From contig JBDRLC010000064.1 of the NCBI GenBank assembly GCA_043813305.1, positions 32,048-96,047 on the forward strand: 64,000 nt of DNA, read 5' to 3'. Every line of letters begins with the position of its first letter. Positions within the stretch are counted from its first letter, which is position 1. The stretch comes from Candidatus Omnitrophota bacterium (GTDB lineage Bacteria; Omnitrophota; Gorgyraeia; Gygaellales; Profunditerraquicolaceae). Under the pieces are notes generated by a model. The model did no database searches. It was not told the origin of the DNA and was given only the letters and a program-made list of their open reading frames with translations. The position numbers were made by a program, and so were the translations under genes. Below, piece after piece: positions 2,421 through 33,340 of the stretch.

Positions 2421-2457
2421 ATATCGAGAAAACTTAGCGTTTGCTTTAAAAAAGTGC

Positions 2458-2990: not shown

Positions 2991-3032
2991 TTATTAGGTA
3001 AAAAGTTACAAGCGTAATTATTTACTCAAAAT

Positions 3033-3083
3033 AAAATGGCTGACTTTTCGTATTAAGTAATACGATAAAAAGTCAGCCATTTT
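3033..3083 (+). terminator. Intrinsic terminator-like hairpin after the pilin gene
   Basis: Perfect 16-bp stem AAAATGGCTGACTTTT (3033-3048) / AAAAGTCAGCCATTTT (3068-3083). It extends by CGTATT/AATACG and is flanked by A- and T-runs. Confidence 0.6.
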
Positions 3084-3094
3084 AATGATTAAAT

Positions 3095-7027: not shown

Positions 7028-7046
7028 TATGATACAATAATCTGCT

Positions 7047-8762: not shown

Positions 8763-8774
8763 GAATCTGAGGCT

Positions 8775-9335: not shown

Positions 9336-9337
9336 AT

Positions 9338-9796
9338 ATGGATAAGAAACGCATTGAGATAATTATCACTTCTGGTTTGGTCTTAGTCCTTATTCTTGCT
9401 TGGCTAAGGATGTTCGGTTTTATGAAAAAAAGAAAGGCTCCTGTGCCAAAGCCCAATCTTGCAGCTTCAACTCAACCCATAAGAGCGGCTAGAGAAGCTG
9501 TTATCTTAGGGTCTGAACAAGGGGGCCTTAAAGAGAATGGGAAATGGAAGGAGGAAGAGAGGTTAGGATGGGTGAGGTGTCCTTTTTCTGGCAGGGCGTA
9601 TATTAGCACTGAAGGAGCTATAGGGTTGATCCTCACCGGTATAAACTGGGATCAAGAGAAAGCCATTGCCATAATAAATAATAAAATATTAATGACAGGC
9701 GAGAAAGTAGGTCCGTATACCGTAGTTAGTATAGAGAAGGAAAAAGTAATTTTAAACGATGGTGCTGATAAGCTGGAACTCCGCCTCTCTCAATAA
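9338..9796 (+). CDS. PilP-like / GspC-HR-like small bitopic protein
   Basis: 152 aa with an N-terminal TM helix, a Pro/Ala linker and a C-terminal beta segment (AIAIINNKILMTGEKVGPYTVVSIEKEKVILND) resembling PilP/GspC homology regions. Assignment is partly by position. Confidence 0.45.
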   Translation: MDKKRIEIIITSGLVLVLILAWLRMFGFMKKRKAPVPKPNLAASTQPIRAAREAVILGSEQGGLKENGKWKEEERLGWVRCPFSGRAYISTEGAIGLILTGINWDQEKAIAIINNKILMTGEKVGPYTVVSIEKEKVILNDGADKLELRLSQ

Positions 9797-9803
9797 CCCC
9801 ATA

Positions 9804-13341: not shown

Positions 13342-13868
13342 AAGAGACGATTAGATATAGTTTGATATTGGGCATAATATGTTTTTTGGCCAGCGCGGTT
13401 TTATCTGTAGTCAATGCCGTAACCGCGCCAAAGATAGAAGAGCAGAGGATGCTTGAAGAGAAGGCTGCCTTAGAAGAAGTGATGCCGGAAGCAACCGAGT
13501 TTCTAGCAAAATCCTTGGGTGATTCGGTTTATTATCTGGCTTTTAATGATCAAAGGCTTATCGGGTTTGTGATTAAATCCAGCGGCGAAGGGTATTCTTC
13601 GGATATCGTGACCTTGACCGGTCTAGATCTTAAATTAGAGATTGTTGATATCAAGATCCTCTCTCAAAACGAGACTCCCGGTTTAGGGAGCAGGGTAGAA
13701 GAAGCCTCTTTTAGAGAACAGTTCCAGGGAAGGGGTTTAAATTCTATGGATCAAGTCGAGGCAATAACCGGAGCAACTATCTCTTCTTCCGCAGTGATCG
13801 ATTCAATTAAAAAACAGATATTAGAACTTAAAGATATATTACTTCAGGAGATTAATAATGCCGGATAG
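13338..13868 (+). CDS. rnfG: Rnf complex subunit G (FMN-binding)
   Basis: 176 aa with an N-terminal anchor helix. FMN_bind domain with ETPGLG and the flavinylation motif TGATISS. Confidence 0.88.
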   Translation: MKETIRYSLILGIICFLASAVLSVVNAVTAPKIEEQRMLEEKAALEEVMPEATEFLAKSLGDSVYYLAFNDQRLIGFVIKSSGEGYSSDIVTLTGLDLKLEIVDIKILSQNETPGLGSRVEEASFREQFQGRGLNSMDQVEAITGATISSSAVIDSIKKQILELKDILLQEINNAG

Positions 13869-14790
13869 ACTAACAGCCAGTACATCTCCGCATATCCATA
13901 GCCATGAATTAACTGCTCAAGCAATGTGGTCAGTATTTCTGGCTTTAGTGCCTGCCGGGGTTGCCGGAGTCTATATCTTTGGTTTATCTGCTCTAAAGAT
14001 TATCGTTATCTCAATATTAAGTTGTATAATTTTTGAGGCTTTAATCCAGAGATTGACCGGAAGAGAAGTTACTATCTTAGACGGTTCCGCAGCTATTACT
14101 GGTATTTTATTGGCTTATAATCTATCTTCAAATGTTCCTCTTTGGATCCCTGTTGTTGGAAGTTTCTTTGCTATTGCTATAGTAAAGCTGGCGTTCGGAG
14201 GACTGGGAAGGAATATTTTTAATCCTGCCTTAGCAGCCCGCGCATTTTTACTCGCCTCCTGGCCGAAATATATGACTGATTTTGATGCCCTTACCGGCGC
14301 AACACCCTTAGTAATGATCAAAGAAGGAAAGGCGCATGATTTAGCGGAGTTAGGGTTGACCTACTGGGATTTATTCTTAGGCAAGAGAGGGGGTTGCATC
14401 GGAGAGGTATGCATTCTGGCTTTATTACTCGGCGCAGTCTATTTACTCTGGAAGAAACATATCTGGTGGCAGACACCGTTTGCTTTTGTTATTACGCTGG
14501 GAGGTTTGAGCTGGATTTTCGCAGTGCAGGGTTTTTTCAAAGGTGATTTTCTATTTAGTATCTTATCCGGTGGAATAATTCTTGGCGCTTTTTTTATGGC
14601 TACTGATTATGTTACCAGCCCTCTGTGCAGAAGGGGGCAGCTGGTATTTGGTATTGGTTGCGGATTGGTTGCTTTTCTCATACGCAGGTTCGGAGGATAT
14701 CCGGAAGGGGTATCTTATGCAATTTTAATTATGAATGCATTTGTACCTTTGATTGACAGGCATATCCGGCCAAGGGTATATGGAACGTGA
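13858..14790 (+). CDS. rnfD: Rnf complex subunit D
   Basis: 310-aa polytopic membrane protein with SPHIH near the N-terminus, the flavinylation motif LTGATPL, and FMATDYVTSP. Confidence 0.9.
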   Translation: MPDRLTASTSPHIHSHELTAQAMWSVFLALVPAGVAGVYIFGLSALKIIVISILSCIIFEALIQRLTGREVTILDGSAAITGILLAYNLSSNVPLWIPVVGSFFAIAIVKLAFGGLGRNIFNPALAARAFLLASWPKYMTDFDALTGATPLVMIKEGKAHDLAELGLTYWDLFLGKRGGCIGEVCILALLLGAVYLLWKKHIWWQTPFAFVITLGGLSWIFAVQGFFKGDFLFSILSGGIILGAFFMATDYVTSPLCRRGQLVFGIGCGLVAFLIRRFGGYPEGVSYAILIMNAFVPLIDRHIRPRVYGT

Positions 14791-15392
14791 TGAGTTTAAT
14801 TAAAGAATTAACTAAAGGCATATCAAAAGAGAATCCTACATTAGGGCTTGTTTTGGGGTTGTGTCCTGCCTTAGCAGTCTCTACTTCCGTAAGCAATGCT
14901 GTTGGCATGGGGATCGCCGCTACTTTTGTTCTGCTTGGTTCAAATACTATAATTTCAGGAATCCGAAGATTGATTCCTGAGCGCATCAGGCTTCCGGCGT
15001 TTATCGTAATTATTGCTACATTCGTGACTATTTGTGAGTTGGTAATGAAAGCATATTTTCCGGTTTTAGATGCTAATCTGGGGATATTCGTTCCATTGAT
15101 TGTAGTGAATTGTATTATTTTAGGAAGGGCCGAAGCCTTTGCCTCAAAGAATCCGATTTTACCTTCGATCTTTGATGCCATCGGTATGGGTATTGGTTTT
15201 ACTCTAGCATTAATTTCAGTAGCTTTGGTACGCGAGATCTTGGGCGCGGGGAGTATCGCCGGATTTAAATTAACCGATAATTTTGAACCGGTAGCTATGA
15301 TGATACTTGCGCCGGGAGCCTTGCTTACACTGGGTTTGTTAATTGCCTTAACTAATCTGCTTAAAACTAAAGGCAAGAGAGGGCAGCAATAA
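14787..15392 (+). CDS. rnfE: Rnf complex subunit E
   Basis: 201 aa, NqrD/RnfE-type (NPTLGLVLGLCPALAVS). ATGA-type overlap with rnfD. Confidence 0.9.
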   Translation: MMSLIKELTKGISKENPTLGLVLGLCPALAVSTSVSNAVGMGIAATFVLLGSNTIISGIRRLIPERIRLPAFIVIIATFVTICELVMKAYFPVLDANLGIFVPLIVVNCIILGRAEAFASKNPILPSIFDAIGMGIGFTLALISVALVREILGAGSIAGFKLTDNFEPVAMMILAPGALLTLGLLIALTNLLKTKGKRGQQ

Positions 15393-15997
15393 TGGATTTT
15401 GCTAAAATTTTGACTATAGCCATCAGTATGATCTTCATCAATAATTTTATTCTCTCTAAATTCCTCGGCCTTTGTCCTTTCTTAGGGGTCTCTAAGGAAA
15501 CTAAATCAGCGCTTTCCATGGGGTTTGCAGTGATATTTGTAATGACTATATCCAGTATTATCACCTGGTTGGTATATAACTTTGTATTACTGCGTTTTAA
15601 TATCGGATATTTAAGGACGATTACCTTTATCTTGGTTATTGCCGCATCTGTTCAGTTCATAGAGATAGTGATTAGAAGATATTCTCCTGCTTTGTATAGG
15701 GCTTTAGGGATTTATCTGCCTTTGATTACTACCAATTGCGCTGTTTTGGGTGTGACGATATTAAATATCAATAATTTTTCTAAGGGAGTTTCTTTAGCAG
15801 AGAGTTTTCTTTACTCTACCGCTCAGGCTTTTTTTGCCGGTGTAGGTTTCTTACTGGCGCTGATTATTATGTCAGGGATCCGCGAGCGCCTGGAATTGAT
15901 CGATATACCAAAGAGCCTGCAGGGTATTCCTATAGCTTTTGTGGTTGCCTCGCTGATGAGCCTGGCATTTATGGGATTTAACGGGTTCTCCCGCTAA
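15392..15997 (+). CDS. rnfA: Rnf complex subunit A
   Basis: 201 aa, NqrE/RnfA-type (FLGLCPFLGVS). TAATG overlap with rnfE. Confidence 0.9.
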   Translation: MDFAKILTIAISMIFINNFILSKFLGLCPFLGVSKETKSALSMGFAVIFVMTISSIITWLVYNFVLLRFNIGYLRTITFILVIAASVQFIEIVIRRYSPALYRALGIYLPLITTNCAVLGVTILNINNFSKGVSLAESFLYSTAQAFFAGVGFLLALIIMSGIRERLELIDIPKSLQGIPIAFVVASLMSLAFMGFNGFSR

Positions 15998-16063
15998 ACT
16001 GATTAATTAGCAGGCGGGATCCCGCCATCGAATAAGTGTAGAGTGGCGGGGAGGTTTTAAATC

Positions 16064-16879
16064 ATGGATATATTACCGCCGATTTTAACTTTAACCGGAT
16101 TGGGAGTTGTTTTTGGGGCAGGTCTTGCTCTGGCAGCTAAGAAGTTCTGCGTAACTGCTGATCCCCGTCTGGAAAAAATATATGCTCAACTTCCCGGAGC
16201 AAACTGCGGCGCCTGCGGTAAGCCGGGATGTATCGGATTTGCCGAAGGTTTGATTCAGGGGACTTGTTCTATTGAAGGATGTGTACTAGCTGAGGAAAAA
16301 GTGCGCGAGATGATCGCAGGTGTGTTAGGGGTGGAACATAAAGCAAAATTAAAGAAGGTGGCTGTTCTGCATTGTAATGGAGGGAATAAACGGGCAAAGG
16401 ATAAATTTGAATATAGCGGCATAAGAAGCTGTCTTTCTGCTGATCTTGTTGCAGGAGGGCCGAAGGCCTGTATTTATGGCTGTATAGGATACGCGGATTG
16501 TCAGCGGGTTTGTCCCTTTGGCGCAATTACAATGAGTGCAGAAGGCCTACCGGTGGTTAATGAGGATAAGTGTACTGCCTGCGCTAAGTGTATAGTAGCA
16601 TGCCCTAAGAAACTTTTCAGTTTGGTCTCAGCTGACAAAAATTATCTTGTGCGCTGTAAATCTCTTGATCTGGGGAAAAAAGTAATGCGGGCCTGTTCTG
16701 TTGGATGTATTGCCTGCCGTAAATGTGAGAAGGCCTGTCCGCTTGAGGCAATTAAGATGATTGATAATCTTTCGGTTATTGACTATAATATCTGTGATAA
16801 CCGCGGTGAGTGTTTCAGGGTCTGTCCTACCAAGAGTATTACCAGGAAGGAAAATAAGTTATGGAAGATGCGGGCTTAA
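16064..16879 (+). CDS. rnfB: Rnf complex subunit B (polyferredoxin)
   Basis: 271 aa with an N-terminal membrane helix, LPGANCGACGKPGC, and several 4Fe-4S motifs (CTACAKCIVACP, CIACRKCEKACP, CDNRGECFRVCP). Confidence 0.9.
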   Translation: MDILPPILTLTGLGVVFGAGLALAAKKFCVTADPRLEKIYAQLPGANCGACGKPGCIGFAEGLIQGTCSIEGCVLAEEKVREMIAGVLGVEHKAKLKKVAVLHCNGGNKRAKDKFEYSGIRSCLSADLVAGGPKACIYGCIGYADCQRVCPFGAITMSAEGLPVVNEDKCTACAKCIVACPKKLFSLVSADKNYLVRCKSLDLGKKVMRACSVGCIACRKCEKACPLEAIKMIDNLSVIDYNICDNRGECFRVCPTKSITRKENKLWKMRA

Positions 16880-22007: not shown

Positions 22008-22130
22008 TTGTGTGTGGGTAAGGGTAAGGATGCCGGTTTGGTTTATGGGTAAGGTAGTTGGTGTTTTAACACCTAACCCTAACCCAACCACCAAACCAAC
22101 TTCCTAACCTTAACCCTAACCTTCACACAA
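22008..22130. repeat. Family-C long imperfect palindrome (copy C1), G-rich arm GGGTAAGGGTAAGG / C-rich arm CCTTAACCCTAACC
   Basis: The ends TTGTGTG (22008-14) / CACACAA (22124-30) enclose a hairpin of about 110 nt. About 85-90% identical to 55549-55664 by eye. Confidence 0.75.
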
Positions 22131-22416: not shown

Positions 22417-22575
22417 ATGGCAGACTCGGGTAAGGAAAAAAGAAAATTCAAAAGAACCAAGGCCAACTTCACCATTGTCTATGATCTATATAAGCCGCTG
22501 TCTGCAAGTATGAGCACAGGGGGGCAGATATGGCGAATCAAGATGCCAAGAGAAGAGATTACCAAAAATAATTGA
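22417..22575 (+). pseudogene. Truncated PilZ-domain gene (5' fragment, paralog of 28813-29196)
   Basis: MADSGKEKRKFKRTKANFTIVYDLYKPLSASMSTGG matches EKRKFRRTKANFTIIYDVYKPLSASMSIGG of the intact gene. Homology ends at residue ~37 and a stop follows at codon 53. The upstream TTAGTG(C/G)TATAATTA is also shared. Confidence 0.7.
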
Positions 22576-22746
22576 GGAATATTGTATAGGATGCGCACAT
22601 TGTATCATGGCCTGTCCCTTGGGGGTATTGAAACTTGTAGATAAGAAATCCAAGGTAGTGAATTATGAGGCATACGATAGCCAGAGTGTTGTATTGCAGC
22701 TTGCCCGCAGAAAGCAATGCCTTATCTAGAAGAGCAAGAATATTAA
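22562..22746 (+). pseudogene. Frameshifted/decayed 2x[4Fe-4S] ferredoxin remnant
   Basis: The first cluster motif is intact (EEYCIGCAHCIMACP) but there is no start codon in frame. The second motif is readable only after a frame change (..CCIAACPQKAMPYLEEQEY*) and its upstream Cys codons are lost (TAC GAT AGC CAG AGT GTT). No ORF of 60 aa or more exists here. Confidence 0.6.
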
Positions 22747-22840: not shown

Positions 22841-22868
22841 TTGAATTTTTAAATATAAGTTATATAAT
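22841..22868 (+). promoter_or_regulatory. Candidate promoter of the receiver-porin-ApbE operon
   Basis: TTGAAT (22841-46), 16-nt spacer, TATAAT (22863-68). The context is AT-rich, so chance matches are likely. Confidence 0.3.
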
Positions 22869-22976
22869 GCTAGGAGTATTAACGATTAAAGTAATTATTC
22901 CTTTGCTGACGACCGGCACCAATAATATAAAACGATTAGATCAATCTGTTAATTTTGAAATTAAGGAGGTCTCATT

Positions 22977-23348
22977 GTGAAGAAAAAGATATTGATAATT
23001 GATGATGAGGTAGGTTTTGTATCACTAGTGAAATTAAATCTGGAAGAGACTGGACAATATGAGGTTGAGACAGAGAATAAAGGGGCAAAAGGCCTTGTTG
23101 CTGCTAAGAGATTTAAACCAGACCTAATTTTATTAGATGTGATAATGCCTGATATGCAAGGCAATGAAGTAATCCAACAGTTAGAAAATAATGCAGATAC
23201 TAAAAATATTCCAGTGGTTTTTTTGACTGCAATTGTAACTCCGAAAGAAACGGCGGAAGAAGGCGGTATTGTAGCTGGCAGGGCTTTTATAGCTAAGCCG
23301 GTAAGCATACAAAAACTCATAGAAGTTATTAAGGAGAATGTGGGTTAG
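22977..23348 (+). CDS. Stand-alone response-regulator receiver domain (CheY-like)
   Basis: 123 aa with a GTG start behind AAGGAGG. IIDDE, phospho-acceptor Asp in LILLDVIMPDMQG, FLTA, AKP. No output domain. Confidence 0.85.
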   Translation: MKKKILIIDDEVGFVSLVKLNLEETGQYEVETENKGAKGLVAAKRFKPDLILLDVIMPDMQGNEVIQQLENNADTKNIPVVFLTAIVTPKETAEEGGIVAGRAFIAKPVSIQKLIEVIKENVG

Positions 23349-23399
23349 AGATTTAAGTTTTGGTTAGATTATAAGCTTAATTTAGAGAGGCAGGATAGT

Positions 23400-24659
23400 A
23401 TGGTGAAATCCATTATTATATTACTGACCATTTATATGTTGGGATTTTTTGATATAGGATATGCGCAAGTAGGACAGATACAAGAGCTAAAGGAGCAAAT
23501 CAAGGGAATGGAGGTAATGATAGAAACACTGAAAACCAGAGTACAGGAGCTAGAAGATAAGCAGAAAGCTCAAGATGAGCAGGTTGGAAAGATTTCTCAA
23601 CTAGAGGAATCTGTAGGAGAACTACAAGAACCCGGGCCTGGTTTTTTTGAAGGCGTAAAGGTGGGCGGGCATTTTAAGGCATATCTTTTTGATCGCTCCC
23701 AGGGAAAACGTAATGCAATCAGACAACACAATAATCTCTCCGCGGGTATACACCACCTCTATCTTTATTTTAGAAAAGAACTGGAGGATTGGTTTAGTAT
23801 AGATTTACAGACAGATACCTCTGTTACTGCCAGTGCAACCCCGAGCTTAGGATCCAATATAACCAGGGCAACGAGCGCTAGCGTTAGTACTTCTATACAC
23901 CAGGCTTTTATGAATATAGTCTTGCCTAATAATAGCGAACTAAAAGTAGGGCTTTTTCATCCCATGTTTAGCGAAGATTACGCAAATGAAATCTGGTGGG
24001 ATCAACTCTATCATCAGAATAAGGGCCTGGACTATTTGCAGTCCTGGTATGATATGGGGGTTGAGTTTTATAAAAACTTTGATTTTGAGAATTGGTCTTT
24101 ACCGGTTTATCTTTCTTATCTTAATGGTAATACAGCCTACCGCGGTCAGTTTGTTGACAATAATGAAGGAAAAACGGTGTTAATTCATCTTGCTCCTGAA
24201 TTCTTCCAGTCTAAGCTGAAACTTCTCGGATCATTTGCTTTGGGAAAACACGATGTCGATAACAATGACGACCTGCGCCGATACGCAGCAGGTTTCGACT
24301 GGAAGTATAAAAAGTTTAGTATCCTGGGGGAATATCTTTACAGTAAATGGGAGAATTTATCTCTTACAGGCGGAGGAAATGAGGATGGCACTCGAGATGG
24401 CTATTATATAAAAGCCTTATACCGTTTTAGTCCAAAGTGGAGAGGACTGATTCAATACAGTCATTCCGAGCTCTATAATACCGCAGGGAGCGTTATGAGG
24501 TCTGATATATACGATGCATTAACATTGGGAGCGAATTATTTCCTTACAGAAGGCTCTACGATCATAGCCCAGGTTTCAACTTGCGATGCCAATAGGTCTG
24601 ATGATTCAGAGACTTTAGAGTTTTTACGCTATACCCTTGGCTGGCGGATTACATTTTGA
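23400..24659 (+). CDS. Outer-membrane beta-barrel porin-like protein with an N-terminal coiled coil
   Basis: Signal peptide (IGYA|QV), about 55 aa of heptad-rich coiled coil, then alternating beta-strand-like segments. The C-terminal ...LGWRITF ends in an aromatic residue, as in OMPs. The layout resembles OprO/P-type porins. Confidence 0.55.
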   Translation: MVKSIIILLTIYMLGFFDIGYAQVGQIQELKEQIKGMEVMIETLKTRVQELEDKQKAQDEQVGKISQLEESVGELQEPGPGFFEGVKVGGHFKAYLFDRSQGKRNAIRQHNNLSAGIHHLYLYFRKELEDWFSIDLQTDTSVTASATPSLGSNITRATSASVSTSIHQAFMNIVLPNNSELKVGLFHPMFSEDYANEIWWDQLYHQNKGLDYLQSWYDMGVEFYKNFDFENWSLPVYLSYLNGNTAYRGQFVDNNEGKTVLIHLAPEFFQSKLKLLGSFALGKHDVDNNDDLRRYAAGFDWKYKKFSILGEYLYSKWENLSLTGGGNEDGTRDGYYIKALYRFSPKWRGLIQYSHSELYNTAGSVMRSDIYDALTLGANYFLTEGSTIIAQVSTCDANRSDDSETLEFLRYTLGWRITF

Positions 24660-24668
24660 GGTTAAATA

Positions 24669-25679
24669 ATGTTAGGTAAGATACACAAATCCCCATTGAT
24701 AATATTTATACTATTATTTATTATTTTAGGAGGAATAAAGTTTTACAATGTCCGTAGATTCCATCTGGAGAAACAAAAGCGTTTTATGATGGACACATAT
24801 GTGACGATCTATGCGCTTGGCCCCGAAAGAATCACTTCAGAAGCAGTTAATCAAGCCTTAAATCGAATGCAGGAAATAGAAATCAAATTTAACCCGCGCG
24901 ATTCCAGAAGTCCGGTTTTTAGGTTTAATCAGCAAGGGACGCCGATTTCTGATCCGGAAGTCTTAGAAGTTGTTAAGATTGCCTTAAAGGTTAGTCGTGA
25001 TTCTGAGGGGGCATTTGACATCACCACTTTTCCTTTGACTGTTTTATGGAAAGTTACTGACAAGTCGCCTGATATTCCTGGGCAGGATCAGATTGAAGAG
25101 GTCTTAAGTAGAGTGGGCTATCAGCACCTGTTGCTTGAGAATGGAGTGTTAAATAAGAAGCAGGACGATGTTTCTATTGATTTAGGAGGTATTGCAAAAG
25201 GATATGCAGTTAGCGAGGCAGTCAAAGTTTTAAGGAATTACGGAGTGGCCTCTGCTGTTATAGATGCCGGGGGAGACGTATTTGTTCTGGGAAGAAGGGG
25301 TAGGAAAGGCTGGAAGGTAGGTATAAGAGATCCTCACAAAGATGATATTCTGGGATATCTAGAGGTAGAAGATTTAGCAGTTATGGGCTCAGGGGTTTAT
25401 GAGAGATTTTTTGTAAAAGGCGAAAAAAAATACCACCATATTATTAATCCTAAAACAGGATATCCGGCAGAAGGCCCAAGCGGCGTTACTGTTGTTTATT
25501 CAGATCCCGTGATTGCGGATGCCTGGGCTACGGCGATTTTTGTGATGGGCTCCAGTAAAGGGCTGGAGAGAGTAGAAGAGTTTCCCGGTATGGAGGCAAT
25601 AATAGTCAGTGAAGCAGGGGAAGTCTTGTATTCTCAAGGGATCAAAGATGCCCTGAGAATTATTCCTAAGGGTCAATAA
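24669..25679 (+). CDS. apbE: FAD:protein FMN transferase (ApbE/Ftp family)
   Basis: 336 aa with an N-terminal anchor helix, MDTYVTI, FDITTFPL, DLGGIAKGYAV, GGD and HHIINPKTGYP. Confidence 0.85.
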   Translation: MLGKIHKSPLIIFILLFIILGGIKFYNVRRFHLEKQKRFMMDTYVTIYALGPERITSEAVNQALNRMQEIEIKFNPRDSRSPVFRFNQQGTPISDPEVLEVVKIALKVSRDSEGAFDITTFPLTVLWKVTDKSPDIPGQDQIEEVLSRVGYQHLLLENGVLNKKQDDVSIDLGGIAKGYAVSEAVKVLRNYGVASAVIDAGGDVFVLGRRGRKGWKVGIRDPHKDDILGYLEVEDLAVMGSGVYERFFVKGEKKYHHIINPKTGYPAEGPSGVTVVYSDPVIADAWATAIFVMGSSKGLERVEEFPGMEAIIVSEAGEVLYSQGIKDALRIIPKGQ

Positions 25680-25696
25680 AATGAGGAAAGAACGAT

Positions 25697-26311
25697 ATGG
25701 CAAAGATTAAGAAAAGAATATTCAGCATCATTTCATTTTTATTTATCATTGGTATTTCTGCCACTCCTTGCTTGGCAATCACGCTTTTAACTGAAAAAGA
25801 GGCTTTGAGGCGCCTCTTCCCTTCGGCAGATGAAGTAGTCGTGGAGAAAAAAAATATTTCAGATGCACAACTAAATACAGTAAAAACAAGGCTTGAAGAA
25901 AAGCTGGTGAATTATGAGAAAAGCCGCACAGCCAAACAGATTATTCAACAAAAAGAGTTTGATTTTTATTTTGCGATAGAAAACGGCAAAAAGAGCGGGG
26001 TCGCCATTATTCTAGAGGAACCCGGTAAGTGGGGGCCAATAGAGTTTATCGTAAAATTAAATTTAGAGGGGGTCATAGGAGAGGTTATTGTAATGAGATA
26101 TACTGAGACCAGGGGCCGGCCTATAGCTAGGAGGAGTTTTTTAAAACAATTTGCTGGTAAGACGGCCAAAGACACTTTTAAATTACGCAAGGATATTGTA
26201 GCGGTAAGTGGAGCAACTATTTCTTCCGGGGCCGCAGCATTTACCGTAAAGAAGGCCATTGTTTTGTATGAAGAGCTATATCTAAGAAATATACAAAGTA
26301 GCGTAAAATAA
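25697..26311 (+). CDS. Secreted/periplasmic FMN-binding-domain protein (NqrC/RnfG-type FMN_bind)
   Basis: 204 aa with a signal peptide (ISATPCLA). C-terminal FMN_bind domain with the flavinylation-type motif VSGATISSG. Confidence 0.7.
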   Translation: MAKIKKRIFSIISFLFIIGISATPCLAITLLTEKEALRRLFPSADEVVVEKKNISDAQLNTVKTRLEEKLVNYEKSRTAKQIIQQKEFDFYFAIENGKKSGVAIILEEPGKWGPIEFIVKLNLEGVIGEVIVMRYTETRGRPIARRSFLKQFAGKTAKDTFKLRKDIVAVSGATISSGAAAFTVKKAIVLYEELYLRNIQSSVK

Positions 26312-28275
26312 TGAAGAAATTTAGAGATTGGAAGATAAAATATAAGCTTTTTTCAGGATTCGTTTTAATAACAGCATCTTTGGTAGCAGTAGGTTTATAT
26401 ACTATTTTTTCTGCGAGTATTATTAAGTCTAAAGCACGGGAAATAGAGAGATTAGACTTTTCTGCCGTATATTTAACTACCGAGATGAAAGAAACATTCC
26501 TTACATTAGAAAATAGCCAAGCTGATATTTTTCTAACATCCAGAAAGGAAGCTTTAGAAACCAGCAGTATTCATCAAGAGAAGTTTTATATTCTTGTTTC
26601 AGAATTCAGGCAATTAGCAAAGGATGATCTAGTTATAATTAATGAATTAGATATCTTGAAAGCTAAATTTGACAATTATGTTTCGGAATGGGAAAAATTT
26701 ATAGAATTTTTTATAGATAATTCCCCTCAGGCTGGCAGAGAAGAATATAAAAAAATACATATTTTAGGTTTAGGGGTGGTTAATGAAATAGATATTTTTC
26801 AAGAGGAATATATCTCCCGCCTATCGGAATCATTGGGGAGCATAGACAGTGGCGCTAGATATACCCAGAGGATTAATATTATTTTGTTGATAGCCAGCAC
26901 TATTTTAGCAGTTATACTTTCAGTATTCCTTACAAGAAGAATTGTCGGACCTCTGACGCGGTTAATGCAAGCAACAAAGAAAGTTTCCCAGGGCGACTTT
27001 GCATATTCTAGTTATTTAATAAAAGATACAAAAGATGAGTTGGGCGACTTAACGCAATCCTTCGCTGAAATGGGGAAGCAATTAATTATTCAAATGAACC
27101 AACTGAGGGAGGCGGCAGATGAGTGGGAAAACACCTTTAATTCTATAACCGATTCAATATCAATTCAAAATAAAGCTTGCAAGCTCACGAAGGTCAATAG
27201 AGCGTTTAGCGACCTTTTTCATTTAAAACCAAAAGATATTATTGGTAGGAATTGCTATGAATTGGTTCATGGGATAAGTAAACCCCATGATCTTTGTCTT
27301 CATAAACGGGCAATAGAAACTAAACAGCCAGCCAGCAGGGAGTTTTTCGAGCCACATTTGGGAATTTATATAGAAGTAAGCGTGTCGCCAATATTCGATA
27401 AAGATAATGAAGTTAATGGTTCCATACATTTTATTAAAGATATAACTGTACGTAAAAAGGCAGAAGAGAATTTAGAGTACGCATATAAAAAACTTAAGGA
27501 TGCCCAGGAAAAGCTTATCGAGGCAACAAAGCTTGAGACGGTAGGGAAGCTTGCTAGCGGTGTAGCTCACGAGGTTAAGAATCCCCTAGCAATAATTCTT
27601 ATGGGGGTAGAATTCCTCTCTAAAAAAATTAGTCCTGATGAAAATGAGCTTAGCATTGTCGTGGAAGAAATGAGGGATGCGGTGCAACATGCCGATGATA
27701 TAGTGAAGGGGCTTCTTGATTTTTCTCGAGTCACAAAGTTAGGGCTATCGCCGATTGATTTTAATTCTGTATTAGATAAATCAATAACATTAGTGAAACA
27801 CATATGTGATAGCAATCGAGTTAAAATAGTCAAAAATTATACAGAAGGTCTTCCGCAAGTTGAGATAGATAGAGGTAAGATTGAGCAAGTGTTTATAAAT
27901 ATTTTAGTGAATGCTACTCATGCTATGCCTAATGGAGGAAGCATTACAATAAAGACCTATCAAAAAAAACTAACTGAAGCTGGTGGCGCGGTCGGTCGGA
28001 GAAGCGAGGATAAATTTCAGTTAGGGGAAGAGGTGGTTATTGTTGAGATCGAAGATACAGGTGCAGGTATTCCGCTAGAACTTTTAAATAAGATATTTGA
28101 TCCCTTCTTTACTACGAAACGCGAAAAAGGCGGAACAGGATTGGGGTTATGCGTGGCAAAGAATATAATCGATATGCATAAGGGGCATATTAAAATAGAA
28201 AACAAAGAGCAAGGACATGGAGTAAAAGTCACTATAATCTTTAAGATAAAAAAGGAGGGTCAGCTTGGAGGCTAA
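26311..28275 (+). CDS. Sensor histidine kinase (periplasmic helical sensor, HAMP, PAS, HisKA, HATPase)
   Basis: 654 aa. Domain order: TM, about 170 aa helical region, TM (INIILLIASTILAVILSVFL), HAMP, PAS. H-box SGVAHEVKNPL, N box NILVNATHAM, G boxes EDTGAGI and GGTGLGL. The start overlaps the upstream stop (TAATG). Confidence 0.9.
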   Translation: MKKFRDWKIKYKLFSGFVLITASLVAVGLYTIFSASIIKSKAREIERLDFSAVYLTTEMKETFLTLENSQADIFLTSRKEALETSSIHQEKFYILVSEFRQLAKDDLVIINELDILKAKFDNYVSEWEKFIEFFIDNSPQAGREEYKKIHILGLGVVNEIDIFQEEYISRLSESLGSIDSGARYTQRINIILLIASTILAVILSVFLTRRIVGPLTRLMQATKKVSQGDFAYSSYLIKDTKDELGDLTQSFAEMGKQLIIQMNQLREAADEWENTFNSITDSISIQNKACKLTKVNRAFSDLFHLKPKDIIGRNCYELVHGISKPHDLCLHKRAIETKQPASREFFEPHLGIYIEVSVSPIFDKDNEVNGSIHFIKDITVRKKAEENLEYAYKKLKDAQEKLIEATKLETVGKLASGVAHEVKNPLAIILMGVEFLSKKISPDENELSIVVEEMRDAVQHADDIVKGLLDFSRVTKLGLSPIDFNSVLDKSITLVKHICDSNRVKIVKNYTEGLPQVEIDRGKIEQVFINILVNATHAMPNGGSITIKTYQKKLTEAGGAVGRRSEDKFQLGEEVVIVEIEDTGAGIPLELLNKIFDPFFTTKREKGGTGLGLCVAKNIIDMHKGHIKIENKEQGHGVKVTIIFKIKKEGQLGG

Positions 28276-28657
28276 TGCAGAGAAGAAGAAAATATTAATT
28301 ATTGATGATGAAATAAGCTTTACCAATATGGTTAAAAGAAACCTTGAGGCCACGGGTAAGTACGAGGTCGCAATTGAGAATGAGGGTAAAAATGCCCTTT
28401 TAGCAATTAGAAAACATAATCCGGACATTATACTGCTTGATAATGTAATTCCAGATTTAGGTGGGGCTAATATATTTGGAATGCTAAGAAGTGATATTAT
28501 GATTTGGAATACCCCGGTTTTATTTTTAACCGCATCCTCAAAGGAAGAAGTGGAGGCTAGAATAGGAGGTTTTATTCTTCATCCTGTTATTTTAAATAAA
28601 CCAATCAACATGAAAGATCTTATTAAGCATATTGAGGAAAATTTAAAGAGGTCTTAA
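28265..28657 (+). CDS. Stand-alone response-regulator receiver domain
   Basis: 130 aa with ILIIDDE, IILLDNVIPDLGG, LFLTAS and LNKP. Overlaps the kinase gene by 11 nt. Confidence 0.85.
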   Translation: MEANAEKKKILIIDDEISFTNMVKRNLEATGKYEVAIENEGKNALLAIRKHNPDIILLDNVIPDLGGANIFGMLRSDIMIWNTPVLFLTASSKEEVEARIGGFILHPVILNKPINMKDLIKHIEENLKRS

Positions 28658-28812
28658 TAATCTGTCCTGAAAGGGATATTTAGGGGAGCTCTGATTTAGC
28701 TGAGTTTAAATTTAGTTCGCAAAAGTAGGTAATATCCGTAGCAATTTGGGCGGGTTTTATTTTTTGACAGCGGATTTAGTGGTATAATTATTTATCTTTT
28801 GGGAAGATAAAA

Positions 28813-29196
28813 ATGAAAGATAAGGATATGGAAAAAAGAAAATTCAGAAGGACAAAAGCCAACTTTACAATAATCTATGATGTATATAAGCCGCTCTCTG
28901 CTAGTATGAGTATCGGAGGCAGGCAGGTCGATGCGCTGATGTTGGATTTAGGCAAAGCCGGCATGGCGATCTCCTCGAATTATGCTATGCCTGTTTCTAC
29001 GGTTTTGAATATGAAATTTACCCTGATCAATCGCCGCTCAGAACAGGAGAACCGTGTAATCTCTATGCAGCTATTGGGTGAAGTGTGCTCATGTACTTTA
29101 CAGGAAAACGGTGAGTACCGTCTGGGTATACGTTTTGTGCGCATAACTGAAGAAAACAAGAAAGCAATAGAGGAGTTTGTAGAAAAAATTTCATGA
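28813..29196 (+). CDS. PilZ-domain protein (variant c-di-GMP motif)
   Basis: 127 aa (alternative start at 28828). RxxxR present as RKFRR, but the second motif reads DLGKAG instead of D/NxSxxG. An extended -10 TGGTATAAT lies at 28780-28788. Confidence 0.7.
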   Translation: MKDKDMEKRKFRRTKANFTIIYDVYKPLSASMSIGGRQVDALMLDLGKAGMAISSNYAMPVSTVLNMKFTLINRRSEQENRVISMQLLGEVCSCTLQENGEYRLGIRFVRITEENKKAIEEFVEKIS

Positions 29197-29219
29197 TCAT
29201 GTAAGTAGCGGAGGTAAAT

Positions 29220-29630
29220 ATGGGAAATCCAGGTAGCGAGAGAAGAAAATCTAAGAGGACAAAAGCCAACTTTACTATTATTTATGATGTGCATAAATCA
29301 GTCTCTATGGACGTGAGCCTGGCAGGCCAGGAGGTTGATGCATTGATGATGGATTTAGGTAAGGAAGGCTTAGCAATCACTACTAATTACGAGATACCTA
29401 TCGCAAGTATCTTGAATATGAAGTTCACCCTGATTAATCGCAGAGCTCAAGATAAGAATAATAAGAGCAGGTCTATCTATATAATGGGTGAGGTGCGCTC
29501 CAGTATCAGATTGGAGAACGGCGAATATCGTTTAGGGATTCATTTTATCCAGCTAAAAGATGAAGACGCAAAAGCCATAGATAATTTCGTGGAAGCTATG
29601 TCTAGCCCGCCTAAGAATGATGAAGGATAA
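29220..29630 (+). CDS. PilZ-domain protein, tandem paralog
   Basis: 136 aa with RKSKR and DLGKEG. About half of its residues are identical to the upstream paralog by eye (KANFTIIYDV, ALM.DLGK.G.AI, ILNMKFTLINRR, ENGEYRLGI.F). Confidence 0.7.
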   Translation: MGNPGSERRKSKRTKANFTIIYDVHKSVSMDVSLAGQEVDALMMDLGKEGLAITTNYEIPIASILNMKFTLINRRAQDKNNKSRSIYIMGEVRSSIRLENGEYRLGIHFIQLKDEDAKAIDNFVEAMSSPPKNDEG

Positions 29631-32337
29631 GCTCTGGGAATTCAGTGATAAATCAGGAAGTTTTAAGTCTGGTTCGGCAAACAAAATAAAAAATCTTTAT
29701 TTCCCGCTCGCCAATAGAAGCCTGATGTCTTCGGTCTCTCCTGATTTACACGGAGATATTAAGGCTAATCAGAATTCCTTTCTGCTTACTCCGGTTTCCC
29801 GCCAGGATTTAACAGACCTAAAGGCATCAAGAAATTTCTGGATCTATATAAACAAGGATAAGGTCTGGTCGGCTACCGGGGTATCCAAAGATGCAAGTAA
29901 TACTAAGAAAGATAAATATAATCTTGAAGCAGGGCTGCTTTGGCATAAGATAAGCAGGGAAAATAAGGATATAGGTTTGCGTGCAGAGATTCTTTCTTTC
30001 GTGCCAAAGCAGGAACCGATTGAGATAATGCTACTTAAAATTACCAATATTTCATCAAGGAAGATAAAGTTTGTTCCTACGGCAGCCATACCCATATATG
30101 GCCGGGGGGCAAATAATCTACGCGATCACCGTCAGGTTACCTCATTACTACAACGTATAACGCTTGATAAGTTCGGGATTATAGTGCAGCCGACATTACT
30201 CTTTGATGAAAACGGACACAGGCCTAATAAAACTATGTATTTTACTTTGGGCTGGGATGAAAGATTCACTGCGCCGCAATATCTTTATCCGACACAGGAG
30301 ATGTTTTGTGGTGAGGGAGGGGATTTAGAGGCACCGATTAGCGTACTTAATAATCTGCTCCCGCAAAATAAACATATTCAGGGTAAGGAAACAATGGGTG
30401 CTTTACGTTTTCGCAGTAAAGTTCTGGCTCCGAGAAAATCCTGGAGTTATATAATTGTGATGGGTATTAGCGAAGATAAAGCCGAGATAAAAGAGATTAT
30501 CAATAAGCTTAAAACTTTAGATAAAGTTCAAAAGTCATTCCAGGATACATCTAATCATTGGCTTAAGGGTATTCAGAGAATAAAGCTTTCGACCGGTGAT
30601 TATGAATTTGACAATTGGTTCCGTTGGGTTTCGATTCAGCCGAGATTAAGAGAGATCTTTGGATGTTCTTTCCTGCCTGATTTTGATTATGGAAGAGGGG
30701 GCCGGGGTTGGCGGGATCTCTGGCAGGATTGTTTAGGGTTAATTTTAAATAATCCTCAAGAAGTACGCAGTACCTTGATCAATAACTTTTCCGGAGTGAG
30801 AATCGATGGATCTAATGCTACGCTTATCGGTAAGAGCAAGAGTGAGTTTACCCCGTTAGAGACTAAAGGGAAACGACAGAAAGCTAAGATGTCTCTAACG
30901 GGGTTTAAATCCGACCGAAACAACATCAGCCGCGTCTGGATGGACCATGGCACCTGGCCTTTATTGACTTTAGATCTTTACCTTAATGAGACTGGGGATT
31001 TCAACATTTTATTTAAGCAGACCTCATATTTCCGTAACCATGAAGTCTGCCGGACGCGTGCAATTGATTTTAATTGGGAGCATGCTTACGGTAAGAAACT
31101 CAAGACGAAATCAGGTAAGATTTATCAAGGGACAATCTTAGAACATCTTCTGGTTGAAAACCTGGTGCAGTTTTTTAATGTAGGGGATCATAATTATATC
31201 CGGCTTGAAGGCGGGGATTGGAATGACGGCCTGGATATGGCGGAGGAGTTTGGCGAGAGCGTTGCTTTTACTGCTATGTATGCCAATAATTTGGGAGTTC
31301 TCTCTGGTTTATTATTAAAGACAGGTAAGAAAAAAATCATGATCGGCGGCGAAATAAAGCTATTACTTGCGAAGATAGATTACGGCGATATTAAGGGAAA
31401 AGAGAGAATTTTGCATAATTATTTTGAGAGGACTAAATCCGAGGTATCCGGCAAGAAGGTAAGTATAGACGTATTGGCGCTTGCATCTGATTTAAAGAGT
31501 AAATCCGACTTGATCATTGAGCATATTCGCAAGAAAGAATGGCTGAGATCAGGATTCTTTAACGGTTATTACGATAATAAAAAACAGCGTGTTGAAGGAT
31601 TCAGGCTTGGTAGATTGAGGATGATGCTCTCTTCACAGGTATTTTTGATTACTGGCGGCGTAGCCAACGATCTGCAGGTAAAACAGATTATAAAAAGTGT
31701 AGATAAATATCTCTATAACAGAAATCTAAAAGGTTATCAGCTTAATACTGATTTTAAGCAGGAGCAACATGATCTTGGCCGGGCCTTCTCCTATATATAC
31801 GGAGACAAGGAGAACGGCGCGTTCTTTAACCATATGATTGTGATGTATGCCTATGCTTTATATAAGCGCAATTTTATTAAGCAGGGTTGGAGAGTTCTAA
31901 GTTCAATATATAAGATGGCACTTAATACGCCGCAGAGCAAGATATATCCCTGCCTTCCGGAATATTTTAACCTTCAGGGCCAGGGTATGTATTCGTACCT
32001 TACCGGCTCTGCGAGTTGGTTTGTTTTGACTATGTTAAACGGAGTCTTTGGCGTGAGGGGGGAAGACGGCAATCTATTAGTTGAGCCGAAGATATCTTTC
32101 GAACAGTTTAAAGGTACTTCAATCATCAGCATAGAAAGGGTATTTACCGCAAGAAAGTTCCGGATAAATTTTTCAAAATCAAGAAGATCCAAAAATAAAG
32201 AATATAAAATTATCAAAGCCAGCCTTAATTCTCAAAATTTACCTTTAGTGCAGGATAAGCGGATTGTGATTAGCCGTAATAGAATAATGAAATTGCCAAG
32301 AGATAAAATACATACCCTGGAGGTTGTTTTAGGGTGA
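29617..32337 (+). CDS. GH94-like glycoside phosphorylase/hydrolase, (alpha/alpha)6-barrel enzyme of the cellobiose/chitobiose/beta-glucan phosphorylase type
   Basis: 906 aa. GRGGRGWRDLWQDC (the RDxxQD motif) and GGDWNDGLD (catalytic Asp motif GDWND) as in GH94 enzymes. Overlaps the PilZ gene by 14 nt. Confidence 0.55.
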   Translation: MMKDKLWEFSDKSGSFKSGSANKIKNLYFPLANRSLMSSVSPDLHGDIKANQNSFLLTPVSRQDLTDLKASRNFWIYINKDKVWSATGVSKDASNTKKDKYNLEAGLLWHKISRENKDIGLRAEILSFVPKQEPIEIMLLKITNISSRKIKFVPTAAIPIYGRGANNLRDHRQVTSLLQRITLDKFGIIVQPTLLFDENGHRPNKTMYFTLGWDERFTAPQYLYPTQEMFCGEGGDLEAPISVLNNLLPQNKHIQGKETMGALRFRSKVLAPRKSWSYIIVMGISEDKAEIKEIINKLKTLDKVQKSFQDTSNHWLKGIQRIKLSTGDYEFDNWFRWVSIQPRLREIFGCSFLPDFDYGRGGRGWRDLWQDCLGLILNNPQEVRSTLINNFSGVRIDGSNATLIGKSKSEFTPLETKGKRQKAKMSLTGFKSDRNNISRVWMDHGTWPLLTLDLYLNETGDFNILFKQTSYFRNHEVCRTRAIDFNWEHAYGKKLKTKSGKIYQGTILEHLLVENLVQFFNVGDHNYIRLEGGDWNDGLDMAEEFGESVAFTAMYANNLGVLSGLLLKTGKKKIMIGGEIKLLLAKIDYGDIKGKERILHNYFERTKSEVSGKKVSIDVLALASDLKSKSDLIIEHIRKKEWLRSGFFNGYYDNKKQRVEGFRLGRLRMMLSSQVFLITGGVANDLQVKQIIKSVDKYLYNRNLKGYQLNTDFKQEQHDLGRAFSYIYGDKENGAFFNHMIVMYAYALYKRNFIKQGWRVLSSIYKMALNTPQSKIYPCLPEYFNLQGQGMYSYLTGSASWFVLTMLNGVFGVRGEDGNLLVEPKISFEQFKGTSIISIERVFTARKFRINFSKSRRSKNKEYKIIKASLNSQNLPLVQDKRIVISRNRIMKLPRDKIHTLEVVLG

Positions 32338-32350
32338 GGAGGAAGTAGCT

Positions 32351-33340
32351 ATGGTAAGAGACAAAGCCCCTGCTAATAAAGAATTAAATTTAGTCTTACA
32401 GGAATTAAAGGAGAATCCCTTTGAGAAGTTCCATCTGGCGTTTTGCCTGATGAGCCTGATACCTTTTCTTGTATTTTTCTATCTTTTGGCCGCCAGGTTA
32501 TTTTCGTTTGATATACTCCTTGGTGATATTGGCCTGGTGTTATTCTTAACTATTTTTATCTCTGTATGCGGATTTTTCATCGGTTACGGTATTATCCGTA
32601 ACGTGATGCTGAGGATCGTATTTTATGCTGCGAAAGCAAAGCAGAGCGATCAGTTAAAATCTATCTTTGTCGCCAATGTATCCCATGAGCTTAAGAGCCC
32701 GCTGACAATAATGAAAATAAATCTTTCGAATTTCCTCGATGGCCTAATCGGTAAGATTACCCAGGAACAGGAGAAAGCAATTAAACTTTGCGACGGTATA
32801 ATCGAACGCATGAAGCGAATGATCAATGATCTGCTGGATCTGCATAAGCTCGAAGCAGGGATGGTGGGCTTTAATAGAAAGCAATTTAAACTCGATGATC
32901 TTCTGCAGAGAGAAACGAACGAGTTCCAGCCGATGGTGAATAAAAAACGGATTAAATTAACCAAAGATATCGCAGTCAATAATCTATCTATATGGGCGGA
33001 TGAGGATAAGATTATGCAGGTAGTAAACAATCTTTTAAGCAATGCGGTAAAATATACCCCTGAAAAAGGACAAGTTCAACTGAAGGCTTATGCTGTTGAC
33101 GGTTATGTCAGGGTAGAAGTACTTGATACCGCCGAAGGCATCCCGGATAACAAGCTCAAGAAGATATTCGACAAATTCGAGAGAATTAATCTCACCCAGG
33201 AGGGAACAGGCCTGGGTTTAGCTATTACTAAAGACATAGTGGAGTTGCACAAGGGTAGCATCTGGGCAGAAAGGCAGCCTGATCAGGGCAATAAATTTGT
33301 GGTGATTTTACCCCGCGACTTCCGCACTACCCCCCGTTAG
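32351..33340 (+). CDS. Membrane histidine kinase without an obvious sensor domain
   Basis: 329 aa with two TM helices joined by a short loop. H-box VSHELKSPLT, N box NLLSNAVKYT, GTGLGL. Confidence 0.85.
   Translation: MVRDKAPANKELNLVLQELKENPFEKFHLAFCLMSLIPFLVFFYLLAARLFSFDILLGDIGLVLFLTIFISVCGFFIGYGIIRNVMLRIVFYAAKAKQSDQLKSIFVANVSHELKSPLTIMKINLSNFLDGLIGKITQEQEKAIKLCDGIIERMKRMINDLLDLHKLEAGMVGFNRKQFKLDDLLQRETNEFQPMVNKKRIKLTKDIAVNNLSIWADEDKIMQVVNNLLSNAVKYTPEKGQVQLKAYAVDGYVRVEVLDTAEGIPDNKLKKIFDKFERINLTQEGTGLGLAITKDIVELHKGSIWAERQPDQGNKFVVILPRDFRTTPR

Follow-up and report, generated by a model that had tools for sequence, protein, structure and literature searches.

Several bacterial receptors sense through a separate periplasmic or extracellular partner protein, as in LuxP-LuxQ, TorT-TorS, MBP-Tar, and HbpS-SenS-SenR of Streptomyces reticuli. 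The HbpS partner of SenS carries haem, so an extracytoplasmic redox partner with a bound cofactor has a precedent. In DcrA of Desulfovibrio and in GSU0582 and GSU0935 of Geobacter, haem c is held in the periplasmic PAS-like domain of the receptor itself. The covalent attachment of flavin mononucleotide (FMN) by ApbE has, to our knowledge, so far been given roles in electron transport only. Here, a stretch of 64,000 nucleotides from a Candidatus Omnitrophota bacterium (contig JBDRLC010000064.1; the window) was analysed, in which a receptor histidine kinase is encoded in one six-gene cassette with an outer-membrane beta-barrel protein, an ApbE-type FMN transferase, a secreted FMN_bind flavoprotein, and two single-domain response regulators (RR1 and RR2). 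The cassette appears to encode a three-component envelope redox sensor, with the ApbE-flavinylated periplasmic protein as co-sensor of the receptor, a reading to which we would assign a probability of roughly 60%.

Sensing that depends on an accessory protein is already known; what the cassette adds is its cofactor chemistry, an enzyme dedicated to maturation, and a dedicated barrel. As in the LuxPQ, TorTS, and HbpS-SenS systems, the gene of a secreted partner adjoins that of a receptor lacking obvious ligand or redox chemistry of its own, and the two were adjacent and co-inherited in 10 loci, 3 of which were recovered blind. Here, however, the partner has the RnfG/NqrC fold, a predicted covalent flavin, an enzyme encoded in the same operon, and its own barrel, and the sensor is a four-helix-bundle-like (4HB) domain common to kinases and methyl-accepting chemotaxis proteins (MCPs). 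The likeness to DcrA, GSU0582, and GSU0935 lies in a periplasmic redox cofactor feeding a transmembrane chemoreceptor or kinase, although in the cassette the cofactor is a predicted covalent flavin on a separate protein.

By descent, the parts of the cassette come from the ApbE/FMN_bind electron-transfer systems covered by the surveys PMC8238504 and PMC11334425, and term searches in both of these papers returned nothing on kinases, porins, or signal transduction. Targeted searches of the open literature yielded no published description of the sensor variant, of a sensor with a flavinylated partner, or of the barrel-ApbE-FMN_bind triad, in agreement with the initial annotation of this DNA, which knew of no two-component system using a flavinylated periplasmic partner.

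The flavin-based extracellular electron transfer (EET) locus of Listeria monocytogenes (FmnB/ApbE, PplA, EetA, EetB, FmnA, Ndh2, DmkA, and DmkB) shares with the cassette an ApbE-type transferase and a secreted FMN_bind target, and relatives of the cassette extend the likeness to EetA, EetB-FmnA, UbiA, polyprenyl synthase, and an NAD(P)H-flavin reductase-like gene. EetA and EetB-FmnA form the flavin adenine dinucleotide (FAD) exporter of the Listeria system (PMC9973259). The hosts here are diderm, however, and their module includes a dedicated outer-membrane barrel without counterpart in the Listeria locus, whereas the window cassette has lost the exporter, quinone genes, and dehydrogenase and gained a receptor kinase and two receivers. 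The window holds no Listeria-type EET locus, and an electron-transfer role is not evident from the cassette genes. With RnfG and NqrC, the flavoprotein shares the fold, the FMN_bind domain, and the SGAT flavinylation motif, but it is a soluble protein with a cleaved signal and not a complex subunit, its gene lies apart from the rnf genes, and EPGKWGP and RGRPIA are motifs of its own. Relatives in Desulfobacterota resemble the porin-cytochrome conduits MtrCAB (Shewanella) and OmaB-OmbB-OmcB (Geobacter) in joining a barrel with periplasmic multihaem and surface decahaem cytochromes, and also have an inner-membrane cytochrome b in the cluster. In contrast to those conduits, the only detectable kin of the barrel are OprO and OprP and not MtrB, the barrel is porin-sized (~340 aa), flavoprotein and ApbE are obligatory, and the window version has no cytochromes.

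Organization of the cassette

The cassette consists of six co-directional open reading frames (ORFs), all on the + strand. Its genes and their main parts, including the transmembrane segments (TM) of the kinase, are as follows.

22977..23348, + strand, RR1, a single-domain response regulator with a receiver only (123 aa, GTG start)
23400..24659, + strand, predicted outer-membrane beta-barrel protein (419 aa)
24669..25679, + strand, ApbE-type FAD:protein FMN transferase (336 aa, N-terminal membrane anchor)
25697..26311, + strand, secreted FMN_bind flavoprotein, the proposed redox co-sensor (204 aa)
26207..26227, + strand, predicted flavinylation site SGATISS within the FMN_bind gene (residues 171-177; Thr174 the predicted FMN carrier; motif match)
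26311..28275, + strand, histidine kinase gene, whole
26311..26955, + strand, kinase sensor module (TM1, ~150-aa periplasmic four-helix-bundle-like domain, TM2)
26926..28275, + strand, kinase cytoplasmic part (HAMP, PAS, HisKA, HATPase_c)
28265..28657, + strand, RR2, a single-domain response regulator (130 aa, TTG start, overlapping the kinase stop by 11 nt)

Read from the sequence, the junctions from RR1 through the barrel and ApbE genes to FMN_bind are gaps of 51, 9, and 17 nt, the FMN_bind and kinase genes overlap in TAATG, and the kinase gene overlaps RR2 by 11 nt. An AGGAGG Shine-Dalgarno sequence precedes both RR1 and RR2, lying 6 nt before the TTG of the latter, and a site scan found no terminator-like sites from 22841 to 28657, the cassette interior included. 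The ORF coordinates and junctions thus reproduced the co-directional layout, gaps, and overlaps given in the initial annotation, and Pfam agreed with its domain calls for all six products, among them a HAMP domain followed by PAS in the kinase and stand-alone receivers without DNA-binding output. Its figure of ~170 aa for the periplasmic sensor had to be corrected, as the loop comprises ~150 aa. The six-gene arrangement is not due to chance, since the same cassette recurs in unrelated genomic contexts; it is real and recurrent, and current annotation does not account for it.

Linkage of the sensor domain to FMN_bind genes

Loci for comparison came from species-representative genomes (n = 45), metagenomes (n = 26), and, for the others, exact-protein look-up, leaving 65 nonredundant loci in which neighbouring ORFs were labelled by phmmer, with the window proteins and representative neighbours as queries. 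An FMN_bind gene adjoining a gene for the window type of sensor was found in 10 loci from about 8 lineages, with a gap of ≤13 nt or an overlap in 9 of them. The linkage therefore extends beyond the source genome. Seven of these loci belong to the neighbourhood survey, namely the window, L001, L038, L081, and L010, which encode kinases, and L078 and L079, which encode proteins with an MCP signalling domain; L001, L038, L081, and L010 are labelled Omnitrophota. A scan of metagenomes with the window FMN_bind protein (26 loci) added no further sensor-type cassette.

The remaining three were reached from the sensor side, where the context of four phmmer relatives of the sensor was looked up blind to their neighbours. 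For P0122 (L082) and P0124 (L083), the gene immediately before is FMN_bind, and both loci contain barrel and ApbE genes; upstream in L083 are, in addition, EetA/EetB-FmnA and a PilM/N gene. P0127 (L084) likewise directly follows FMN_bind, with neither ApbE nor barrel in the 608 bp of upstream sequence. The fourth relative, P0129 (L085), is an MCP of 24% identity that adjoins an OprB porin and not FMN_bind. A signature of three residues (F50, S172, and D179) was present in all linked sensors and absent from this unlinked MCP. In L085 (949-4138), the gene of this MCP, the closest relative of the sensor domain without a link to FMN_bind, directly follows that of the OprB-family porin, which makes it another porin-chemoreceptor pairing.

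Over its first 215 residues, the window kinase aligns with the N termini of two MCPs and of the other kinases that follow FMN_bind; against the L079 MCP, the sensor showed 30% identity over 213 aa (96 bits). The same sensor domain thus precedes histidine kinases (HKs) in eight loci and MCP signalling domains in two, and the outputs of the family include HAMP-HK, HAMP-PAS-HK, HAMP-GAF-HK, and HAMP-MCPsignal. It is also rare: a phmmer search with the sensor domain alone against 1.84 billion (1.84e9) representative proteins returned 64 hits at an E value of ≤1e−3 and 9 at ≤1e−10, the top matches being HAMP-kinases with PAS, GAF, or no added domain. The window sensor scored below the cut-off of the Pfam 4HB_MCP_1 model (PF12729; 24.1 bits against 27 bits), which was exceeded by the homologues P0123 (37.9 bits) and P0125 (34.3 bits). 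Membrane-proximal positions of the sensor are conserved. Conserved Cys or His residues are absent from the domain, which would be consistent with sensing through a partner protein. In the remainder of the kinase, Pfam identified HAMP (E value, 1.6e−11), PAS_9 (7e−12), HisKA (1.1e−10; 41.9 bits), and HATPase_c (2e−20; 73.7 bits), and inspection found the H-box AHEVKNPL, so that the protein qualifies as a two-component histidine kinase. Taken together, the rarity of the sensor, its swappable outputs, its adjacency to FMN_bind, and its position in the slot of an electron-transfer partner, described below, point to the flavoprotein as the probable sensory partner.

Two sensor-type loci carry an extra kinase of ~435 aa (HATPase_c, no clear sensor domain) upstream of the barrel gene (L010, 4622-7581; L082, 591-2259), accompanied by a receiver in L082 and by an ABC1/UbiB-like kinase in L010. 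The window cassette lacks this extra kinase and has kept the upstream receiver RR1. In L078 (5562-7983; a contig from a long-read metagenome), frameshifts interrupt both the barrel and the ApbE gene but neither FMN_bind nor the MCP gene; they could reflect sequencing error or decay of accessory genes.

The barrel-ApbE-FMN_bind triad and its partners

Across informative loci, defined as those with enough upstream sequence, barrel and ApbE genes were found directly upstream of FMN_bind in 43 of 47. These loci represent about ten phyla, including Desulfobacterota, Omnitrophota, Elusimicrobiota, WOR-3, Latescibacterota, and Planctomycetota. Further upstream, a NusG_II gene and a Hpre_diP_synt_I-CbiQ fusion (PF07456 plus CbiQ), corresponding to EetA and EetB-FmnA, were present in 29 of 39 loci. 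Where downstream sequence was available, the first gene after FMN_bind fell into three main classes. An OmcA/MtrC-family decahaem cytochrome (TIGR03507; 508 bits) occupied this position in 22 loci, all Desulfobacterota-like, and a 150-aa protein of the Aq_1264_TM type with four transmembrane segments (4-TM) in 15 loci from many phyla. The third class, a rarer variant found in 7 loci including the window, is the TM-four-helix-bundle-TM-HAMP receptor. Homologues of EetA, EetB-FmnA, Aq_1264, or OmcA were not found within the 64-kb window. On comparative grounds, the triad is thus the core of a widespread EET-type module of diderms, of which the window cassette is a derived variant.

Loci with the decahaem cytochrome often have octahaem and trihaem cytochromes and a cytochrome b upstream, and the order in Desulfobacterota (L005, L007, L021, L024, L030, L031, L035, L039, L040, L058, and others) is octahaem cytochrome, trihaem cytochrome, cytochrome b, EetA, EetB-FmnA, barrel, ApbE, FMN_bind, and OmcA/MtrC decahaem cytochrome. 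No description of this combined flavin-plus-cytochrome cluster was found in the literature searched. The commoner order in Omnitrophota (L020, 2876-12735; also L022, L054, L062, L066, L069, L070, and L074) begins with a Fer2-FAD-NAD reductase, UbiA, polyprenyl synthase, EetA, EetB-FmnA, and the triad. After it come an Aq_1264_TM-like 4-TM protein in which one His is near-invariant, then a single-domain receiver and a PilS-like kinase with six transmembrane segments (6TM). In L020, the upstream genes encode a Fer2-FAD-NAD (NAD(P)H-flavin) reductase-like protein, a UbiA prenyltransferase, and a polyprenyl synthase, which are analogues of Ndh2, DmkA, and DmkB.

In the sensor-type loci, by comparison, six of the seven with at least 5 kb of upstream sequence lacked the FAD exporter and none had Aq_1264; the sensor-type module therefore seems to have been stripped of its electron-input parts.

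Two further partners of the triad were observed. The 6TM PilS-like kinase of the commoner Omnitrophota clusters means that a second kinase type is also tied to it, and in a metagenomic locus (L052, 2105-3621), the triad precedes genes for 4Fe-4S dicluster and CCG-domain (heterodisulfide-reductase-like) proteins, a fourth kind of downstream partner.

The flavoprotein and its ApbE

The FMN_bind protein matched Pfam FMN_bind (PF04205; E value, 4.8e−9; 37.2 bits against a 22-bit cut-off). An AlphaFold2 (AF2) model of it (predicted local distance difference test [pLDDT], 88.8) had RnfG and NqrC as its top Foldseek matches (9eri_G, 4xhf, and 7zc6_G). The score against the best NCBIfam RnfG model was nevertheless 49.6 bits, compared with a cut-off of 205, and at least 303 relatives were found at 45 to 61% identity, the named ones belonging to Omnitrophota and Desulfobacterota. 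The signal-peptide cleavage Ala27 is conserved in the family, as are its two motifs given above. From these comparisons, the family is large and distinct. The [S/T]GA[S/T] motif is given as the ApbE target in PMC8238504. In the window protein, the signal peptide and SGATISS motif noted initially were recovered, and across 22 family members S171, G172, A173, T174, S176, and S177 are invariant, giving the family form SGAT(I/L/F)SS. All ten sensor-linked copies retain the flavinylation motif.

The ApbE protein matched Pfam ApbE over the complete profile (PF02424; E value, 5.9e−79; 265.8 bits against a cut-off of 25.6; positions 1-266 of 266). It also matched the NCBIfam ApbE model (E value, 4.6e−31), under the equivalog cut-off. 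Inspection of the translation revealed a hydrophobic N-terminal segment, PLIIFILLFIILGGIKF, as an extracytoplasmic membrane anchor. The gene is the sole ApbE gene in the window, which also carries an Rnf operon (11995-16879, ~7 kb upstream) with the order rnfC, FMN_bind (RnfG), rnfD, rnfE/A, rnfA/E, and rnfB, so that G precedes D; no ApbE gene lies beside it. The true RnfG gene is at 13338-13868 within this operon and encodes a TGAT motif.

The window Rnf proteins RnfG (TGAT) and RnfD need an ApbE, and with a second one absent from the 64 kb, the neighbourhood could be imagined as coincidental, with ApbE and FMN_bind protein being Rnf maturation factor and spare parts and the kinase and receivers unrelated to them. 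Such a coincidence is close to refuted. The intact cassette recurs beside GroEL and ribosomal genes with no Rnf nearby, its FMN_bind protein falls far below the RnfG cut-off while a separate true RnfG exists, and the adjacency of FMN_bind and sensor was recovered blind from the sensor side. Since barrel and ApbE genes directly precede FMN_bind in nearly all informative loci (43/47), ApbE seems to belong to the cassette module and not to be merely a stray Rnf maturation factor. The dedication of ApbE to this flavoprotein, as first proposed, is thus favoured by the triad order, and service to Rnf, first named as its alternative, is left as a possible extra role.

The predicted outer-membrane barrel

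The barrel protein consists of a signal peptide, a coiled coil of ~55 aa, and a predicted barrel part of ~340 aa with a GWRITF C-terminal end. Pfam Porin_O_P (PF07396) matched only residues 288-388, in the C-terminal third (E value, 3e−8; 33.8 bits against a cut-off of 20.9), and no NCBIfam family was matched. When a profile of the barrel family was compared with solved structures, OprO and OprP were the sole matches, at an E value of 1.3e−4 over ~55 residues for OprO. Eighteen homologues share a signal peptide and an invariant terminal Phe. The family alignment contains the motifs ATPxLG, YLLNG, DNN, and HxxPE, the internal ones being unusually strong, and the N-terminal coiled coil is limited to members from Omnitrophota and Desulfobacterota. 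An AF2 single-sequence model had a pLDDT of 39 and was confident at the N-terminal helix only. An argument from size, that a protein would not fit inside the barrel, was dropped, as the barrels of Geobacter porin-cytochrome conduits are similar in length.

These similarities raise the question of uptake, in which an OprO/OprP-like barrel would import a phosphorylated or chelated nutrient such as FMN, FAD, or ferric chelates, the FMN_bind protein would reduce or bind it in the periplasm, and the receptor would report how much of the ligand is available and not the redox state. The barrel has no detectable relatives other than the porins OprP and OprO, which are specific for phosphate and pyrophosphate, and FMN and FAD carry such groups; moreover, according to PMC8238504, flavinylated systems are often tied to the reduction and assimilation of iron. 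Against this, the similarity to OprO/P spans only ~55 to 100 residues, the cassette encodes no inner-membrane transporter, its relatives have an FAD exporter and not an importer, and in Desulfobacterota a surface decahaem cytochrome serves as the partner. Scavenging is therefore considered improbable.

Receivers and possible outputs

Both receivers have the acidic pocket, phospho-acceptor Asp, Thr, and Lys expected of the domain, and Pfam Response_reg (PF00072) was matched by RR1 (E value, 4.5e−20; 72.3 bits) and RR2 (6.9e−15; 55.6 bits), with no output domain in either. Inspection of RR1 located the DD pair, the Asp in LLDVIMPD, the Thr in FLTA, and the Lys in AKP. Its nearest solved relatives are RR468, CheY, and DivK-type receivers, and matches to solved structures were of the generic CheY, DivK, and RR468-like kinds and gave no receiver subtype. 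A receiver also follows the sensor kinase in L001, L010, L038, L081, L082, and L083, and the receiver that comes after Aq_1264 in the commoner Omnitrophota clusters is closer to RR1 than to RR2.

Directly downstream of the cassette are the following genes.

28813..29630, + strand, two PilZ-domain genes, neighbours and possible output partners (Pfam E values, 6.2e−11 and 1.1e−9)

A consensus scan gave the PilZ pair its own promoter-like site (28764-28791), and PilZ genes beside the cassette were not conserved in the other loci. Together with the pilus genes of the neighbourhood, they give weak hints of receiver output to pili or PilZ proteins. A cluster resembling those of type IV pili or type II secretion systems lies at 34-9800 of the window and comprises PilB, PilC, four prepilin-like genes, and a PilM-PilN fusion, and the PilM/PilN gene of L083 (1-1312) is directly upstream of its sensor cassette; these two cases only hint at a recurring pilus neighbourhood.

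Proposed mechanism and its weighing

In the proposed sensor, ApbE, on the periplasmic face of the inner membrane, would covalently add FMN to Thr174 of the RnfG/NqrC-like FMN_bind protein, and the redox state of the resulting flavoprotein would be set by acceptors or donors entering through the outer-membrane barrel or acting at it, with flavin or other soluble shuttles as candidate redox agents. The periplasmic four-helix bundle of the co-translated receptor would read this state by protein-protein contact and pass the signal through HAMP, and here PAS too, to the kinase, leading to phosphorylation of one or both single-domain receivers. These would act on partner proteins and not on DNA; motility, pilus, or cyclic di-GMP (c-di-GMP)/PilZ targets are guesses. 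Light sensing by the periplasmic flavin was set aside as unlikely for lineages of dark, anoxic habitats.

It is more likely that the FMN_bind module is the input of the receptor than a target regulated by it, because the same sensor domain carries MCP outputs as well as kinases. MCPs are unable to regulate transcription. The lack of DNA-binding domains in both receivers likewise argues that the module is not merely a regulated target. The suggestion made at first annotation, that an ApbE-matured flavoprotein is the input of the co-translated kinase, thus gained comparative support from the adjacency in 10 loci and the exchange of kinase for MCP.

Alternatively, the cassette could be a working conduit that moves electrons or flavin shuttles across the envelope, like its cytochrome-linked and Aq_1264-linked relatives, with electron donors encoded elsewhere and a kinase that senses an unrelated envelope signal and only coordinates use or expression of the module. 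By far the most triads occur in electron-transfer contexts. In L009, L015, L019, and L045, triads without the sensor stand beside two-component genes of other types, some of them with regulators of the DNA-binding or sigma-54 type, and L083 has the sensor together with the FAD exporter. Transcriptional coordination of this kind fits poorly, however, with receivers that have no DNA-binding domain and with a sensor domain that also occurs on MCP outputs. The sensor family is moreover rare, the three close kinase relatives checked all adjoin FMN_bind, and, L083 aside, sensor-type loci with enough upstream sequence have no membrane electron-input component. A conduit under separate kinase control is therefore judged unlikely, although less so than uptake.

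Several points weigh against the co-sensor reading. Flavinylation, interaction with the sensor, and redox control of the kinase all rest on comparative genomics. The cassette ApbE may also, or mainly, serve the Rnf operon. L001, L038, and L081 are close relatives and all taxonomically labelled sensor loci belong to Omnitrophota, so part of the linkage between FMN_bind and sensor could be vertical inheritance. The retention of the FAD exporter in L083 indicates that sensor and working electron-transfer module may coexist, and other two-component genes flank triads without the sensor (L009, L015, L019, L045, and the clusters of Aq_1264, receiver, and 6TM kinase), so that regulatory linkage of a simple kind exists as well. 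Most FMN_bind proteins linked to a sensor have one another as nearest neighbours, and one neighbour-joining (NJ) tree united all of them, but the clade of ten was recovered in only 18 to 21 of 200 bootstrap replicates (~10%). Their monophyly was accordingly given up, and co-evolution of flavoprotein and sensor is not demonstrated.

More tentatively, and with odds that we place somewhat below even, a covalently flavinylated periplasmic protein could be the subunit through which a family of chemoreceptors and kinases senses redox state. ApbE flavinylation would then gain a signalling role, and a detector would have been rewired from a diderm EET module. If so, signalling would be added to the electron-transport roles of ApbE flavinylation, and Omnitrophota and their relatives would possess a detector dedicated to extracellular electron acceptors or flavin shuttles, with which they steer motility or surface behaviour. 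Work on EET and energy taxis asks how bacteria detect acceptors that are insoluble or far away, and how they detect the redox state of flavin shuttles that they share; a receptor family with a covalent periplasmic flavoprotein as input would be a concrete molecular answer. The triad itself resembles a version, for diderms, of the flavin-based pathway of Gram-positive bacteria, and a modular sensor with kinase or MCP outputs would be attractive for chimeric reporters and the engineering of redox biosensors.

Flanking sequences

Upstream of RR1, one candidate control element was identified.

22841..22868, + strand, promoter-like site TTGAAT-16-TATAAT (consensus scan match only, 10/12 positions)

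A search of the region upstream of RR1 for an FMN or c-di-GMP riboswitch gave nothing above noise. A truncated 5′ fragment of a PilZ gene was found ~450 bp upstream of the cassette (22417-22523, also ~22570-22720), followed by a fragment of a ferredoxin gene (Fer4-like CxxCxxC). Compared with the 5′ starts of the two downstream PilZ genes (28813-28919 and 29220-29326), the fragment at 22417-22523 shared 79% identity over 107 nt with the start of the intact gene just downstream of the cassette. The PilZ 5′ repeats lie 6,396 bp apart and bracket the cassette on both sides, which suggests that it was inserted or rearranged into a PilZ gene array.

Beyond the PilZ pair, at 29617-33340, a GH94-family glycan phosphorylase-like gene (906 aa) is accompanied by an orphan soluble histidine kinase of 329 aa with HisKA and HATPase_c and no sensor domain, which could share the single-domain receivers. 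On the other side of the cassette, a long imperfect hairpin (22008-22130) lies between a small FtsB-like gene and tRNA-Met. It matched no Rfam family; one of its arms is G/U-rich and the other C/A-rich with CCCTAA-like repeats, and its predicted free energy is −55.7 kcal/mol (z = −5.1 versus shuffled sequences).

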